Source: Spirochaetia bacterium (lineage in GTDB: Bacteria > Spirochaetota > Spirochaetia > CADAEX01). Taken from it: DNA of 64,000 bases. Positions 53,311 through 60,115 of this stretch are shown here, in pieces. The stretch lies in assembly GCA_045606105.1 (NCBI GenBank), contig JAZURI010000002.1:32001-96000 (forward strand), written 5' to 3'. The first letter of the stretch is position 1; the number at the start of each line of letters is the position of its first letter. The translations under genes were made by a program, and so were the position numbers. The notes under the pieces are model-generated. The model did not search any database. It saw only the letters and a program-made list of their open reading frames with translations, and was not told the DNA's origin.

Positions 53311-53770
53311 AAAGGGAGACCCCCCCTTACAACCCACAGTAGATGGGACGAAAATCAGGAAAACGGTAATAAAGGACTTTATTCTCAAGGTTCTTGATTA
53401 TCTCGGAAAAGACAAATGGGAATTATCCGTTCTTTTCTGCAACGACAGCTTTATACAGGAGCTGAACAGTGCCTACAGAGGCAAGGACGAACCTACAGAT
53501 GTCCTTACATTTGCCCAGGTAGACAGCGATATCCCTTTCCCGGCAAAGAATAACCGGTATTACGCAGGTGATATTGCAATTTCACTTGAAACACTTTCTA
53601 AGAATTCCAAGGCATTCGATGTATCTCCGGACGAAGAGCTTAAAAGGCTTCTTATCCACGGTATCCTCCATCTTGACGGCATGGACCATGAGGATAACGA
53701 ACCGGAAAGAGAAATGCTTGTTCTACAGGAAAAAATACTTCAGGACTTCAAAGGAGTGCAGCTGCTGTGA
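53285..53770 (+). CDS. ybeY: rRNA maturation endoribonuclease YbeY
   Basis: LNSAYRGKDEPTDVLTF, GDIAIS, HGILHLDGMDH. Confidence 0.95.
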   Translation: MNYLQIQIEKGDPPLQPTVDGTKIRKTVIKDFILKVLDYLGKDKWELSVLFCNDSFIQELNSAYRGKDEPTDVLTFAQVDSDIPFPAKNNRYYAGDIAISLETLSKNSKAFDVSPDEELKRLLIHGILHLDGMDHEDNEPEREMLVLQEKILQDFKGVQLL

Positions 53771-54555
53771 AAATCTCAGATTTTTTGAATAAAATGTTTC
53801 ACAAATCCGAATTCGACGAGGAAAGCTTCGGCAACCGTGACCTTAACCTCGAAGAAAAGGATATGATAAAAGGAATTGTGGATCTGGCCGAAAAGACAGC
53901 CAAGGATATCATGATTCCCCGCACCGATGTGGTTTTCATCCCTTCAGATGTTTCCAAGGATGAGATTCTCAAGATAATCGTGGAAAGCGGTTTCTCCAGG
54001 TTCCCTGTTTACGAGGAAACCATTGATAATGTAATCGGAATCCTTCACGTGAAGGATGTTCTCATGATGCTTGTAACAGGGCAGGATTTCTCCGTCAAGG
54101 ATCTTCTCAGAAAGCCTTATTTCATTCCGGATACAAAGAAAGTCAATTCACTTTTCCACGAAATCAGAAGAAAGAAATGTCATATTGCCATTATCGTTGA
54201 TGAATACGGCGGAGTGGCAGGAATCATCTGTCTCGAGGATATTCTTGAGGAGATAGTAGGTGAGATCCAGGATGAATTCGATGATGACGAGGAGGATATC
54301 CTTAAGGTAAGTCCTTCCGCTTATATCTGTGACACCAGGGTTTCCATTGATGACCTGAATGAAGAGCTTCATATAAATCTTCCGAATGAGGATTATGATA
54401 CTCTCGGAGGCTTTGTTTTTGAGCTTTTCGGAAAGATTCCGGTAAAATATGAGAAGAAATCCCATGACAATATGAATTTCATCATACAGGATGTGGACGG
54501 AAACAAGATCAAATCGGTCAAGATTGAATTGAACGTAAACAACAAACAAGGTTGA
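53767..54555 (+). CDS. CorC/HlyC CBS-domain protein (YbeX-like)
   Basis: IMIPRTD, GFSRFPVY, VDEYGG, EDILEEIVGEIQDEFD, YDTLGG. Confidence 0.92.
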   Translation: MKISDFLNKMFHKSEFDEESFGNRDLNLEEKDMIKGIVDLAEKTAKDIMIPRTDVVFIPSDVSKDEILKIIVESGFSRFPVYEETIDNVIGILHVKDVLMMLVTGQDFSVKDLLRKPYFIPDTKKVNSLFHEIRRKKCHIAIIVDEYGGVAGIICLEDILEEIVGEIQDEFDDDEEDILKVSPSAYICDTRVSIDDLNEELHINLPNEDYDTLGGFVFELFGKIPVKYEKKSHDNMNFIIQDVDGNKIKSVKIELNVNNKQG

Positions 54556-54580
54556 AATAAATTATTTTTAGGTTCATACT
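54552..54580 (+). promoter_or_regulatory. sigma70 promoter of the kinase-coaBC operon, apparently leaderless
   Basis: TTGAAA-17nt-CATACT-gatatt-ATG(54587). Confidence 0.55.
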
Positions 54581-54586
54581 GATATT

Positions 54587-55516
54587 ATGTTAAGAAAAGT
54601 CGGCGCATTTGCTCCCGGACATGTTTCGGGACTGTTCTACATGCAGGATAAAAGCAGCAACCCGCTTTACGCAGGCTCCCTGGGAGCCGGTTATTCGCTG
54701 CTTAAGGGTATTACAACAAACATTGAGGTAAAGAAGAGTCAGGATGAATGCGGAATCACCATCAACGGTGTCCACAGCGATGCTCCCGTAAGCCGGAAGG
54801 TCCTGGAACTTTTCTTCAATGAAATCAACGAAAAACCAATTCCTATTGACATAAAACATGTTATAGAAACACCGCAGGGTTCAGGTTTCGGTACCAGCGC
54901 AGGAGGTGCCCTGAGCCTTTCCATGGCACTGAATCATCTTTACGGTGAACCGCTGAACATGATCAATGCCTCCAAGCTGGCCCATGTGGCAGAGGTATGC
55001 TGCAAAACCGGTCTGGGAACCGTAATGGGTGAGTTCTACGGCGGATTCAGAATTCTTACCAAGGTCGGAGCTCCCGGAATAGGAGCCTCCCTTTCCATCC
55101 CTTATCCTGCCGATCTCTATTCCATGTGCGTGGTATTCGGGCCTATTTCCACAAAGGACTCCCTTTCAGACCCTGCAATCAGGGAACGGGTAATGGAGGC
55201 CGGAAAAAAATATCACAACCTTCTGAGTGAAAATCTGGATATAGATCATTTCCTTGAATATTCCAGGGCTTTTACCGAAGATACCATGCTCTATACTCCG
55301 GGAGTGCGTGCAGCTCTCGATTTCTTTACCGAAAGAAAGATAAATGCCAGCATGCTCATGTTCGGAGACGGTATATTTTCCATAATCCCAAAATCCATGC
55401 TGAAGGAAGCGATAAAGACAGCCGAGGATTTCAGCAGCCTCTGCAGCGGCATCAAGCCGGAAATATCCATATCTCGCATCGCAAAGCGCGGTGCCGGAAT
55501 AGTAAGCGAAGACTAA
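54587..55516 (+). CDS. GHMP kinase of the archaeal pantoate kinase family (COG1829-like)
   Basis: AFAPGHVSGLF, AGSLGAG, PQGSGFGTSAGGAL, AHVAEV..KTGLGTV, GAPGIG, ASMLMFGD; adjacent to coaBC. Confidence 0.85.
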   Translation: MLRKVGAFAPGHVSGLFYMQDKSSNPLYAGSLGAGYSLLKGITTNIEVKKSQDECGITINGVHSDAPVSRKVLELFFNEINEKPIPIDIKHVIETPQGSGFGTSAGGALSLSMALNHLYGEPLNMINASKLAHVAEVCCKTGLGTVMGEFYGGFRILTKVGAPGIGASLSIPYPADLYSMCVVFGPISTKDSLSDPAIRERVMEAGKKYHNLLSENLDIDHFLEYSRAFTEDTMLYTPGVRAALDFFTERKINASMLMFGDGIFSIIPKSMLKEAIKTAEDFSSLCSGIKPEISISRIAKRGAGIVSED

Positions 55517-55526
55517 GGAGAAGCCC

Positions 55527-56795
55527 ATGGCATACGGAATCCATCCTTCATTCGACATAACCGAATCCAGGGATACCACCCTCAGGGGAAAATCCATCAT
55601 TCTCTGTATAACAGGCAGTGTTGCTGCCGTACGGGCATCGGAACTGGCAAGACTTCTCATGAGAAAAGGGGCAAAGGTCTATCCTGTAATGTCTGCCGCC
55701 GCATGTTCCCTTATCGGACCCGACCTTATGGAATGGGCCTGCGGCTTCAAGCCTGTAACCACCCTTACCGGAGCTGTTGAACATGTGGCACTGGCCGGAA
55801 ACGTGGAGGGAAAAGCAGATCTGATTCTTGTGGCTCCATGTACCGCAAATACCATCGGTAAGATTGCAGGTGGAATAGACGACACTCCTGTAACCACAAT
55901 GGTTACCACAGCCCTTGGCGAAAAAATACCTCTTATAGTTGTTCCGGCAATGCACGAGCCGATGTACCGTCATCCATTCGTGATGGAAAACATAGAAAAG
56001 CTCAGAAATGCGGGTATTACCGTAATGCTTCCGAGAGTGGAAGAGGGAAAGGCAAAAATTCCCGACAACGAGCTTATTGCAGATACCGTAGTATCAGTTC
56101 TGTCAAAGGATAAGCCGCTCAAGGGTAAAAAAATACTGATAACAGCAGGAAGGACAGTGGAATATATTGATCCTGTCCGTGTAATAACAAACAACAGCAC
56201 CGGAAAAATGGGTTTTGCCATTGCCGAAGCGGCCCGTGACATGGGAGCCGAGGTTACAGTTGTTTACGGAAAGGGCTCCGTGGATTCGGTTCCTGGTGTA
56301 AAAATCATAAATGTTTCCACAGCTGAGGAAATGAAAAAGGGTGTGGAGCAGGAGCTCAGCTCTTCAGATTATGATATCATGATGGCGGCAGCGGCCGTGG
56401 GAGACTGGCAGCCGGTGGAATCATCAGAAACAAAGCTCTCAACCAGGGAGCATAAAAAACTGATTATGGAGCTTGTTCCCACACCTAAGATCATAGATGG
56501 CATAAAAAGCCGCTATCCTGAGGTATTCCTTGTTGCTTTCAGGGCTCTTCACGACCTTTCAGAGGATGAGCTGCTGGATGACGGCAGAAGAAGAATGGCG
56601 ATAGCTGATGCCGACATGATTGCCATCAATGATGTGTCAAAGGCAGGCCGGGGCTTCGGAACCGACACCAATGAAATGCTGGCAGTAAGCAAGGACGGCG
56701 AAATAAGAAAGCTGGAACTTGCATCAAAATATGAAATCGGAAAAAAACTTCTTAATATAGCTTTGGAGAAAATCAATGCAGGCAAAAATAATTAA
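55527..56795 (+). CDS. coaBC: Bifunctional CoaBC (Dfp), archaeal-type
   Basis: TGSVAA, EHVALAG, APCTANTIGK, PAMHEPMY, ITAGRTVEYIDPVRVITNNSTGKMG, AAAVGDW. Confidence 0.95.
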   Translation: MAYGIHPSFDITESRDTTLRGKSIILCITGSVAAVRASELARLLMRKGAKVYPVMSAAACSLIGPDLMEWACGFKPVTTLTGAVEHVALAGNVEGKADLILVAPCTANTIGKIAGGIDDTPVTTMVTTALGEKIPLIVVPAMHEPMYRHPFVMENIEKLRNAGITVMLPRVEEGKAKIPDNELIADTVVSVLSKDKPLKGKKILITAGRTVEYIDPVRVITNNSTGKMGFAIAEAARDMGAEVTVVYGKGSVDSVPGVKIINVSTAEEMKKGVEQELSSSDYDIMMAAAAVGDWQPVESSETKLSTREHKKLIMELVPTPKIIDGIKSRYPEVFLVAFRALHDLSEDELLDDGRRRMAIADADMIAINDVSKAGRGFGTDTNEMLAVSKDGEIRKLELASKYEIGKKLLNIALEKINAGKNN

Positions 56796-57675
56796 CGGAC
56801 TTGAAATAAGAAAGGCAATCCTTGAGGAAATCAAGGCAGAAACACAGAAAATCAAGGAAGAAAAGGGAGTGGTTCCCGGACTGGTTACAATTCTCGTAGG
56901 TGAAAATCCCGCTTCTGTTTCATATGTCACCCTCAAGGTAAAGACAGCCATAGAAATGGGCTTCAACGAGATTCAGGTAAATCTCCCTGCAGATATTTCC
57001 GAAGAGGCACTTCTGGCAGAGGTTGAAAAATACAATAAGGATGATTCCGTACACGGAATCCTGGTACAGCTTCCTCTTCCCAAGCACATTGATGAAAACA
57101 AGATCATTTATGCGATAGACCCTGACAAGGATGTGGATGGCTTCCATCCCGTAAACATCGGCCGTCTTGTACTGGGAGGAGAACATGTGAAATTCCCTCC
57201 ATGTACCCCTGCCGGAATCGTTGAGCTTCTGGAACGTTCAGGAGTGGAGACCAGCGGTGCGGAGGTGGTTATCGTAGGAAGATCAAACCTTGTGGGCAAG
57301 CCTCTTGCAAACATGCTCTGCAGAAAGGGCAGAAATGCAAATGCAACCGTAACATTGGTACATACCGGAACAAAGGATCTGGCATCCCATTGCCGGAGAG
57401 CCGATATCCTGGTTGCGGCAGCCGGTTGTCCGGACCTTATCAAGCCTGAATGGGTAAAGCCGGGAGCCTGTGTCATCGATGTTGGTGTAAACCGTGTAGG
57501 TGAAAAAATCAGCGAAAAGACAGGAAAGAAGGTGGCAATCCTGAAGGGAGATACCGATTTCGAGGCTATTTCCAAAATTGCAGGCAGTATTACCCCGGTA
57601 CCGGGAGGAGTAGGCCCGATGACTATTGCCATGCTTATGCAGAATACACTCAATTCCCTGAAATTCAGGATCTGA
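56776..57675 (+). CDS. folD: Methylenetetrahydrofolate dehydrogenase/cyclohydrolase
   Basis: HGILVQLPLP, KDVDGFHP, PCTPAG, GRSNLVGKP, IDVG, TPVPGGVGPMT. Confidence 0.97.
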   Translation: MQAKIINGLEIRKAILEEIKAETQKIKEEKGVVPGLVTILVGENPASVSYVTLKVKTAIEMGFNEIQVNLPADISEEALLAEVEKYNKDDSVHGILVQLPLPKHIDENKIIYAIDPDKDVDGFHPVNIGRLVLGGEHVKFPPCTPAGIVELLERSGVETSGAEVVIVGRSNLVGKPLANMLCRKGRNANATVTLVHTGTKDLASHCRRADILVAAAGCPDLIKPEWVKPGACVIDVGVNRVGEKISEKTGKKVAILKGDTDFEAISKIAGSITPVPGGVGPMTIAMLMQNTLNSLKFRI

Positions 57676-57687
57676 CCGGAGTTAAAA

Positions 57688-58770
57688 ATGGAAAACAACA
57701 TTGAATTAAGCGCTACATACGAAGCCTCTCTTGAGAGAAGCAGAAACATAGAAAAGGATATCCTTCTCAACCCTCAGAAATACAGGGTTCTTACAGGAGA
57801 CAGACCTACAGGACGACTTCATATCGGCCATTACTTCGGCTCTCTCCAGAACAGGGTAAGACTGGCAGACCTGGGTGTACCAACCTGTATCCTTATTGCC
57901 GATTATCAGGTTCTTACCGATCATGAGGCCTTTTCCGAAATTTCCCAGAATACAAAGCAGCTTGTAATTGATTATCTGGCTGCGGGAATCAAACCAAGCG
58001 ACAAGGTAATCATCTATCCTCACAGCTACATTCCGGAAGCAAACCAGCTTATGCTCCCGTTCCTTACATTGGTTTCCAGCGCAGAGCTTGAAAGAAACCC
58101 TACCGTAAAGGAAGAAATAACAAAATCAGAGCTTTCCTCAGTCAATGCGGGAATGCTTACATACCCGATTCATCAGGCCTGCGACATCCTCTTCTGTAAG
58201 GGAAATGTTGTTCCTGTAGGAAAGGACCAGCTTCCTCACATCGAGCTTACACAGAAGATAGCCAGAAGATTCAACAAGAAGTTCTGTAAGAATTCAGAGC
58301 CTATTTTCCCGATTCCGAATGCACTTCTCAGCAAGACACCGAGCATTCTCGGTCTGGACGGAAGCCAGAAAATGAGCAAGAGCCGTGGAAATGCAATCAT
58401 GCTCTGTGCCACAGAGGACGAGACAGCTTCTCTCATCAAGAAAGCAAAGACCGATACAGAAAGAAACATCACCTACGATCCTGTAAACAGACCTGAAGTT
58501 GCAAACCTTCTCATGCTCATATCACTCTGTACCGGAGAAGAGCCTGCGGATATAGCAGCAAGAATCGGAGAAGGGGGAGGCGGACTCCTTAAGAGAACCC
58601 TTACAGAGGCACTCAACGAAAAGCTCAGACCTCTCAGAACAGAAAGAAAGAAGCTTGAAGCTGCACCGGATTACATCTGTCAGGTACTCCATGACGGAGC
58701 AGCCAGAGCCAGGGAAATGGCTGTGGAAACCCTTACACAGGTTCGCCGTGCAATGAATATGGAAATCTGA
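57688..58770 (+). CDS. trpS: Tryptophan--tRNA ligase
   Basis: TGDRPTGRLHIGHY, YPIHQACDI, VPVGKDQLPH, KMSKS. Confidence 0.96.
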   Translation: MENNIELSATYEASLERSRNIEKDILLNPQKYRVLTGDRPTGRLHIGHYFGSLQNRVRLADLGVPTCILIADYQVLTDHEAFSEISQNTKQLVIDYLAAGIKPSDKVIIYPHSYIPEANQLMLPFLTLVSSAELERNPTVKEEITKSELSSVNAGMLTYPIHQACDILFCKGNVVPVGKDQLPHIELTQKIARRFNKKFCKNSEPIFPIPNALLSKTPSILGLDGSQKMSKSRGNAIMLCATEDETASLIKKAKTDTERNITYDPVNRPEVANLLMLISLCTGEEPADIAARIGEGGGGLLKRTLTEALNEKLRPLRTERKKLEAAPDYICQVLHDGAARAREMAVETLTQVRRAMNMEI

Positions 58771-58777
58771 CAATAAA

Positions 58778-60115
58778 ATGAGACTCGGAAAAAAAATCAT
58801 AATTCTCGGTCTCATTTTGTTTCTTATGCCGGTTTTTTCTCCCTTTTGTCAGGAGGAGAAGCATGTTAACAGGGCCGTAACCGAGGCTCTTTCCTCCAAT
58901 GTTCTCCTGTGGGGCTTCAACCGGTTTGTCACCGACCAGGAATATGCCAGGATCTCACCTGAATCCATGTGGGAAAACCTTTCAGGGGAATGGGTGTGGG
59001 ACCAGGATGAATATACCGTAAACCAGATAGGACATCCGTATCAGGGCTCTCTCTATTTTACCGCAGGAAGGGCCAACAACCTTGATTTCTGGGAATCCTC
59101 AGCTCTTACTGCCGGGGGAAGCATAATCTGGGAATACCTGATGGAAACGGAAACTCCATCCAAGAACGACCTGATCATTACAGTCATGGGAGGAGCCTCC
59201 GTAGGGGAGATGCTGCACAGGCTTTATGAAAAATCCTTTTGGTCAAAATCCCTCTGGCTCTCTTTTTTCATCAGCCCAATGGATGCTGTAAACTATGTTA
59301 TAACTGACAAAAAGCCTGACAACACCGAACACATTCCATTGGAAACCGAAACTCTTTTCTACTTCGGAAGCATATCGGCCGATACAGGCAACCTACAACA
59401 TACCATAGGCACGGGAATCAATATAGTTTACGGAAAACCCTTCGGGCTTGAAAGCAAGGTTCCTTTTGAGCATTTTGAGCTGAATCTGGATGCCTCTTTT
59501 TCAGGAGATGCGTATTATTGGATATCTTTCTTTTCCGACGGCTTGATCAGATCCTGGGCCCCCTGCGAAGACCTTAATTCCGCCACAACCTTGGGTATCG
59601 GGCTTCATTACGACTTTATCTATTCAAAGGACATAAATTATTCGGCCAATTCACTGGGATTCACCCTGAAAAGGAGAAATTTCCTGGATCACGATTTTAT
59701 TTTCGACATAAGAATGCATCTGAACTGGCTTGTTCTGGGCTGCAGCGAATACCCTTATTTCATTAACGGCGATATTCCCAGACCGGCACACCTTGATGAA
59801 CGCAGGGATTACGATATGGGCACCGGAGAAAACATCAAATTAAGCCTGGAGCTTTCTCACGACAAATTCGGCACCCTTTCCCTTTTCGGCAATGCCAGCG
59901 GAATCCATACCATAGGAAATGCAGTTCCGGAAGAGGGCTCTGACGGATTCATATTTGTGGGAACAGCCGGTTTTTCTTACGAAAGGAAATTCAAAAGCAA
60001 ATACAGGGTAGGCCTCAGGGACAATTTTTACTTCAAGCATGGCATATATGACAGTGCTTCAGATTCAGAGAACTGCCTGAATCATTTCAGCATCTATTTC
60101 AAAGTACATTCCTGA
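58778..60115 (+). CDS. DUF3943-like exported/outer-membrane protein
   Basis: Signal peptide; WVWDQDEYTVNQIGHPYQGSLYF, WEYLMETETPSKNDLI; beta-rich C-terminal half. Confidence 0.75.
   Translation: MRLGKKIIILGLILFLMPVFSPFCQEEKHVNRAVTEALSSNVLLWGFNRFVTDQEYARISPESMWENLSGEWVWDQDEYTVNQIGHPYQGSLYFTAGRANNLDFWESSALTAGGSIIWEYLMETETPSKNDLIITVMGGASVGEMLHRLYEKSFWSKSLWLSFFISPMDAVNYVITDKKPDNTEHIPLETETLFYFGSISADTGNLQHTIGTGINIVYGKPFGLESKVPFEHFELNLDASFSGDAYYWISFFSDGLIRSWAPCEDLNSATTLGIGLHYDFIYSKDINYSANSLGFTLKRRNFLDHDFIFDIRMHLNWLVLGCSEYPYFINGDIPRPAHLDERRDYDMGTGENIKLSLELSHDKFGTLSLFGNASGIHTIGNAVPEEGSDGFIFVGTAGFSYERKFKSKYRVGLRDNFYFKHGIYDSASDSENCLNHFSIYFKVHS

Follow-up and report, generated by a model that had tools for sequence, protein, structure and literature searches.

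How does a bacterium supply 4'-phosphopantothenate for coenzyme A (CoA) when it holds a kinase of the archaeal pathway and no recognizable partner for it? The question is raised by a 64,000-nucleotide stretch of DNA from a Spirochaetia bacterium (assembly GCA_045606105.1, contig JAZURI010000002.1, positions 32,001 to 96,000), referred to here as the window, whose forward strand carries a 309-residue GHMP kinase assigned to the pantoate kinase (PoK) family (54587..55516) and, directly 3' of it, a bifunctional CoaBC of archaeal type with 422 residues (55527..56795). We propose that this 'orphan' PoK homologue is the cell's pantothenate kinase (PanK) for salvage, and the sequence data make such a switch or broadening of substrate reasonably probable. 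That it would represent a fourth structural type of PanK, of GHMP fold and recruited from an archaeal PoK after de novo synthesis had been lost, is a further step to which we give slightly better than even chances.

Profile searches of the window's genome (G000; 1.46 Mb in 11 contigs, 99.03% complete) found bacterial-type CoaD and CoaE and returned no match to phosphopantothenate synthetase (PPS; PF02006/COG1701), PanC, CoaX or CoaA. This gene content extends to the whole clade of orphan kinases, represented by eight genome handles, two of which (G240 and G302) have the same kinase sequence and probably represent a single assembly, leaving seven distinct genomes. PPS is missing from all eight, whereas the same profile, for which control matches were obtained in four archaea, identifies the enzyme in 10 out of 10 other spirochete genomes that hold the kinase. 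PanB (PF02548), encoded just 3' of coaBC in the sister loci, is likewise missing from all eight and present in 9/9 of the PPS-holding relatives. PanC and, above the cut-off of its model, CoaA (TIGR00554) were detected neither in the eight handles nor in the ten other genomes, while CoaX (PF03309) was found in none of the eight and in two of the ten (G310 and G312 only). A search of G000 for type II PanK (PF03630) gave no match, but the control search was equally silent and the result is hence uninformative.

Comparison of the kinase loci shows how this state arose. Among 301 sampled genomes of the phylum the kinase is present in six, four of which (G225, G030, G094 and G152) have PPS directly 3' of it, and the two without it are G000 and its congener G240. 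Scanning species-representative genomes provided 80 named kinase loci, in which identity to the window kinase falls from 67-68% in 'Spirochaetia bacterium' metagenome-assembled genomes (MAGs) of the ruminant gut and 62% in a MAG from horse faeces to about 52% in termite-gut and other spirochete MAGs and about 40-45% in many MAGs of Spirochaetales and Sediminispirochaeta; the non-spirochete loci belong to Bathyarchaeota, Thorarchaeota and Nitrososphaerota. Neighbour labels assigned with phmmer place PPS in the fetched flank of 77 of the 86 kinase loci, nearly always directly 3', and in one further case, the Bathyarchaeia locus L078, PPS lies elsewhere in the genome. In the remaining eight (the window, G240 and six ruminant MAGs) the kinase abuts coaBC and there is no PPS. 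The sister locus from horse faeces (L016) reads phoH-HD7TM-ybeY-corC-kinase-PPS-coaBC-folD-trpS, with a 293-residue open reading frame (ORF) at the panB position between coaBC and folD, and ten sisters at about 52% identity (L022-L031) read kinase-PPS-coaBC-panB-folD as far as their contigs extend. The order in the orphan clade is that of L016 minus PPS and panB: both genes were deleted in the ruminant-gut clade and the kinase was retained. In nine of the eleven sister loci folD lies directly 3' of panB, the contigs of the other two (L024 and L025) ending earlier; methylene-tetrahydrofolate, the product of FolD, is the substrate of PanB, and the five genes of the old cluster may have worked together as one unit.

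The family assignment of the kinase draws on several lines of comparison. The only Pfam domain detected is the GHMP N-terminal one (PF00288, GHMP_kinases_N; E = 1.4e-8), and the top NCBIfam models are both pantoate kinase, at 131.7 bits (NF040725) and 122 bits; mevalonate kinase comes next at 26.7 bits, and no mevalonate or homoserine kinase model exceeds 27 bits. The closest sequence match in the PDB is the PoK of Thermococcus kodakarensis (6jbc; E = 3e-31 over residues 5-277), followed by a homoserine kinase at E = 0.0055. An AlphaFold2 model built from a 70-row alignment (pLDDT 94.8, pTM 0.92) again retrieves 6jbc first in Foldseek (E = 3.6e-28, TM 0.85/0.89, rmsd 2.3), with homoserine kinase following at 7e-18. 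All five motifs listed for the kinase in a preliminary description of the locus, PGHVSG, GSLGAG, GFGTSAGGAL, AHVAEV and GAPGIG, are present in the translation. Taken with the tree, sequence and modelled structure place the protein in the PoK family and in no other GHMP family, be it homoserine, shikimate or mevalonate kinase.

In a tree of 86 kinase rows, with support from the SH-like approximate likelihood ratio test (SH-aLRT), the orphan kinases are monophyletic (97) and sister to L016 (97) within a 19-row clade (100), the other 11 members of which all adjoin PPS. The kinase is full length in 8/8 orphan loci. Its ratio of non-synonymous to synonymous substitution rates (dN/dS, method NG86) is 0.034-0.061, a range that refers to the ruminant subclade, synonymous divergence being saturated in comparisons with the window's own copy; the corresponding values are 0.056-0.075 for coaBC, 0.031-0.089 for corC and 0.032-0.040 for folD. 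The orphan kinase is thus under strong purifying selection and is no relic.

The second gene of the pair is archaeal-type as well. CoaBC scores 370.3 bits on TIGR00521 (cut-off 219.7) and contains both the CoaC flavoprotein domain (PF02441, residues 22-186, about 55590-56084) and the CoaB or DFP domain (PF04127, residues 198-385, about 56118-56681). Its identity is only 28.8-33.1% to 28 ordinary spirochete CoaBCs and 33.8% to Escherichia coli Dfp (b3639), against 36.7-51.8% to 47 archaeal CoaBCs, 51-74% to the CoaBCs of other kinase-holding spirochetes and 72-73% within the orphan clade. In a first tree of 80 rows (7 orphan-clade, 27 kinase-linked spirochete, 17 archaeal and 28 ordinary spirochete sequences plus E. 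coli) the orphan, kinase-linked and archaeal rows are split from the ordinary ones by a branch of 1.33 with an SH-aLRT of 100. A second tree of 81 rows, enlarged by 28 archaeal rows of the same phylum as a Bathyarchaeota genome and with the ordinary bacterial rows as its root, retains this separation (branch 0.83, SH-aLRT 100) and unites the archaeal-type spirochete CoaBCs in one clade (SH-aLRT 98) under the archaeal ladder, beside Bathyarchaeota rows. Both are quick trees with SH-aLRT as their sole support measure and E. coli as the sole non-spirochete bacterium.

The residues invoked in the preliminary description, PAMHEPMY, PRVEEGKAK and VAFRA, all occur in the CoaBC translation, and the Asn-to-His change and short Cys-less clamp to which it had pointed do separate the two types in aligned rows. 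Histidine (His143 in the window protein, codon 55953-55955) replaces the Asn of the PAMN motif in 46/47 archaeal and 34/34 archaeal-type spirochete rows, while Asn is found in 28/28 ordinary spirochete rows and in E. coli. The clamp measures 14 residues in the archaeal type and 20 in the ordinary type, and its Cys occurs in 0/51 archaeal-type rows against 23/28 ordinary spirochete rows and E. coli. By these residues the window CoaBC is archaeal-type, and in the trees it is nested among archaeal CoaBCs. The kinase tree gives no direction of transfer, its backbone being weakly supported and the spirochete rows scattered over more than one clade, and the direction is resolved by the CoaBC tree only.

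In the CoaB domain of the CoaBC of MAG RUG13243 (L020:1716-3026), about 10 residues around the AFRALHD motif are duplicated in tandem and in frame. In the closed genomes G030 and G094 (2.5-2.6 Mb; loci L008 and L009), where PoK-PPS and PanB are present, the window CoaBC finds only a CoaC-like match of about 150 residues (E of about 1e-17), and their CoaB may be encoded separately or belong to a different type. A protein of 724 residues (P0187) combines the CoaC, CoaB and PPS Pfam domains in an apparent CoaBC-PPS fusion, which may be real or a read-through of gene calling; its contig is 4692 bp long, as is that of the kinase P0015.

These observations suggest a history in several steps. A branch of Spirochaetota would long ago have acquired a PoK-PPS-CoaBC-PanB-folD cluster from Bathyarchaeia-like archaea. 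The ruminant-gut clade would later have given up de novo synthesis, with the loss of PPS from between kinase and coaBC and of panB from between coaBC and folD, and would have kept the kinase, CoaBC, CoaD and CoaE, so that the PoK-family kinase would now phosphorylate imported pantothenate and feed CoaBC. The reasoning is that the cell must make 4'-phosphopantothenate, because CoaBC, CoaD and CoaE have been kept under constraint; in a genome with no PPS, PanC, PanB, CoaA or CoaX, it would most simply come from imported pantothenate phosphorylated by the last pantoyl-directed kinase of the cell. In the established pathway, as given in an extract of a 2019 mBio article (PMC6650551), PoK and PanK share one target, the 4'-hydroxyl of the pantoyl group, and the change of substrate would therefore require room only for the beta-alanyl end of pantothenate.

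Independent support for pantothenate salvage in the orphan clade comes from the distribution of the pantothenate symporter PanF (TIGR02119, cut-off 328 bits), which scores 418-453 bits in six of the seven orphan-clade genomes tested and is found in none of six PPS-holding sisters. The PoK of T. kodakarensis is reported to show low PanK activity (Yokooji et al., 2009); no report of a PanK side activity of PoK was met in the literature searched.

The kinase retains the residues aligned to Ser28, Ser104, His131, Glu134 and Thr186 of the T. kodakarensis enzyme. Asp143 of that enzyme corresponds to Thr145, a threonine shared by every one of the 20 rows of the kinase alignment, including the PPS-linked and Bathyarchaeota rows, and its 'ExR' at 153-155 becomes 'K/RxL' in the orphan kinases ('RxL' in the window kinase), the 'xL' being common to the PPS-holding sisters. 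Both Thr145 and 'xL' were considered as marks of specificity peculiar to the orphan clade and dismissed, since both also occur in PPS-linked rows. Candidates for determinants of specificity are the clade-specific substitutions A106G, K155R, T150S/F, N203M, G234A/M, I236Y and D248T.

Several points weigh against the proposal that the kinase is a salvage PanK. The clade-specific substitutions are few and show no clear specificity switch, and the stem branch of the orphan kinases is not accelerated (0.15 against 0.16 for L016). The kinase scores far under the curated PoK cut-offs (131.7 against 380 bits and 122 against 500), its PoK scores nevertheless standing about 100 bits above those of any other GHMP family. 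All relatives are MAGs, and profile searches are blind to a PanK or PPS of non-homologous origin, which may thus be encoded. G000 is also the sole orphan-clade genome tested without PanF above cut-off, its best match being PutP-like at 157 bits, and its uptake candidates are limited to S-components of energy-coupling factor (ECF) transporters, none of them assignable to pantothenate. They comprise an ECF module with an S-component near coaD, a second S-component and one BioY; the module (G000:C9:37915-38382; L168:4377-5015, minus strand) is an operon of a fused ATPase, a T component and an S-component (the last matching PF07155 at 116 bits) and is situated 3.2 kb from coaD. We know of no enzymology for the window kinase or for any bacterial PoK homologue.

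The lack of an obvious switch signature, the unaccelerated stem and the blindness of profile searches to unrecognized analogues would equally suit an enzyme that has remained a strict PoK, or that has a substrate outside CoA metabolism, with 4'-phosphopantothenate coming from an unrecognized, non-homologous kinase or ligase encoded elsewhere, and the extract of the mBio article portrays the history of CoA biosynthesis as full of non-orthologous replacements (PMC6650551). The strong purifying selection on the kinase speaks against this explanation, as does the survival of the kinase-coaBC adjacency, and of the probable coupling of the two genes, even as PPS and panB disappeared; a strict PoK would moreover produce 4-phosphopantoate without a consumer. 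We regard it as unlikely, although it survives better than the other alternatives.

A second alternative keeps the kinase in salvage but makes pantetheine, or some other pantoyl compound, its main substrate, with 4'-phosphopantetheine formed directly and pantothenate a minor substrate or none at all. Known PanKs often accept pantetheine, the gut is rich in breakdown products of CoA, and the window's genome is the one lacking PanF. Such a bypass, however, would make CoaBC dispensable, yet CoaBC is intact and, by the dN/dS and clade identity given above (0.056-0.075; 72-73%), constrained, and a symporter equivalog specific for pantothenate is present in all but one of the seven clade genomes tested. 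This possibility therefore appears quite unlikely to us, and we keep phosphorylation of pantothenate as the preferred role of the kinase.

The preliminary description had taken the locus for an archaeal CoA module moved from archaea as a two-gene transfer of kinase and CoaBC. What stands of this is that both genes are archaeal-type, and the full PoK-PPS pair does exist in other spirochetes. A working archaeal route from PoK to PPS is nevertheless highly improbable here: PPS is missing from a genome that is 99% complete and from all eight handles of its clade, and with panB also missing there is no supply of pantoate. Nor was it a transfer of just two genes, the ancestral cluster having held at least PoK-PPS-CoaBC-PanB, with folD beyond it in the relatives, and the present pair is better described as the remnant left by the deletion of PPS and panB. 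An early date for the transfer, as the description had supposed, is supported, and the contig is sound. An assembly artefact fusing archaeal and bacterial DNA, for which nothing speaks beyond the archaeal affinity of kinase and CoaBC, is of negligible probability given that seven further clade loci show the same gene order and 11 sister loci from unrelated assemblies show it with PPS and panB included, that G+C content is uniform, and that metatranscriptome and other-run contigs cover the junctions.

The G+C content lies at 0.42-0.49 over 48-62 kb of the window with no step at the kinase-coaBC pair. Upstream, on the same strand as the kinase, coaBC and folD, a corC-like gene (53767..54555) precedes the kinase, an arrangement conserved in the orphan clade and shared by L016, the sister with PPS; downstream, folD (56776..57675) overlaps coaBC by 20 bp where panB intervenes in the sisters. 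Goat and yak MAGs, each assembled independently, repeat the order phoH-HD7TM-ybeY-corC-kinase-coaBC-folD-trpS, and so do the sheep, buffalo and RUG contigs as far as their shorter length permits. At the kinase-coaBC junction (55511..55529), the site occupied by PPS in the sisters, 10 nt separate the TAA stop of the kinase from the ATG of coaBC, and an AAGGAG ribosome-binding site overlaps the stop. The kinase is probably co-translated with coaBC. In one animal-gut metatranscriptome library 58% of the sampled words are present; its contigs cover 29 of 30 bins of 53700-57700, against only 3/30 for run X2, and single assembled contigs span the two junctions from corC to the kinase and from the kinase to coaBC. 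Since DNA may be present in RNA libraries, we take these contigs as evidence of presence and bridging, no demonstration of transcription, and as weak support for coupling of kinase and coaBC. Further 3', beyond trpS, an ORF of 445 residues with a hydrophobic N-terminus (58778-60115) has a position conserved in the ruminant clade.

Two observations concern the wider distribution of PoK and PPS. Many Bathyarchaeota MAGs (L045, L052, L055-L057, L061, L063-L068 and others) contain adjacent PoK and PPS genes, often with CoaBC nearby; Bathyarchaeota are listed among the lineages without PoK/PPS homologues in the extract of the mBio article (PMC6650551). The 3.8-3.9 Mb MAGs G310 (L027) and G312 (L029) encode PoK-PPS together with CoaX (213 bits) and no PanC; coexistence of the PoK/PPS route with the route through pantothenate synthetase (PS) and PanK is stated as previously undescribed by Thomes and Lescure (2020; PMC7883664).

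The PoK/PPS and PS/PanK routes have so far been treated as a marker separating archaea from bacteria. The loci described here add a broad set of Spirochaetota with the archaeal route and an archaeal-type CoaBC, and one clade in which the kinase has outlived its pathway partner. If the substrate is indeed pantothenate, the orphan clade would offer a clean case of an enzyme shifting to a neighbouring pathway step, with the ancestral state still extant in a form like L016. Source databases and annotation pipelines label the kinase's relatives 'GHMP kinase' or 'pantoate kinase', so that metabolic models of rumen spirochetes would wrongly show a gap at the PanK step or an archaeal route that does not exist. 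The literature searched contained no report of spirochetes with PoK/PPS and no description of a GHMP-type PanK, and among the matches listed for a 'type IV' or 'novel' PanK only human PANK appeared. Poribacteria were the only bacterial exception with PoK/PPS met there, the supplements to PMC7883664 being a place where more may be listed.

These sponge-symbiotic Candidatus Poribacteria provide the closest known parallel, combining an archaeal-type PoK/PPS with bacterial CoaD and CoaE and having no PanK or PS (Thomes and Lescure, 2020; PMC7883664). Their pattern is matched by the spirochete sisters G307-G309 and G311 and also by G225, G030, G094 and G152. The spirochetes differ in belonging to another phylum and in having a CoaBC that is also archaeal-type, and the window's clade differs further in that PPS and PanB are gone but the kinase remains. 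With the archaeal PoK itself (T. kodakarensis TK2141, PDB 6jbc/6jbd; COG1829, NF040725/NF041122) the window kinase shares the GHMP fold and motifs, and it clusters with the PPS-linked PoKs of spirochetes and archaea, but unlike these it has neither a PPS partner nor an encoded supply of pantoate, and its proposed substrate is pantothenate. The window CoaBC shares with ordinary Dfp/CoaBC proteins such as E. coli b3639 the two-domain architecture and membership in TIGR00521, while differing from them in the His that replaces the PAMN Asn, in a Cys-less clamp shorter by 6 residues and in AFRA instead of GFAAE. With PanKs of types I (CoaA), II and III (CoaX) the window kinase would have in common the reaction proposed here and a place in the pathway directly upstream of CoaBC, whereas the folds of these three types, P-loop or ASKHA, are unrelated to its GHMP fold.

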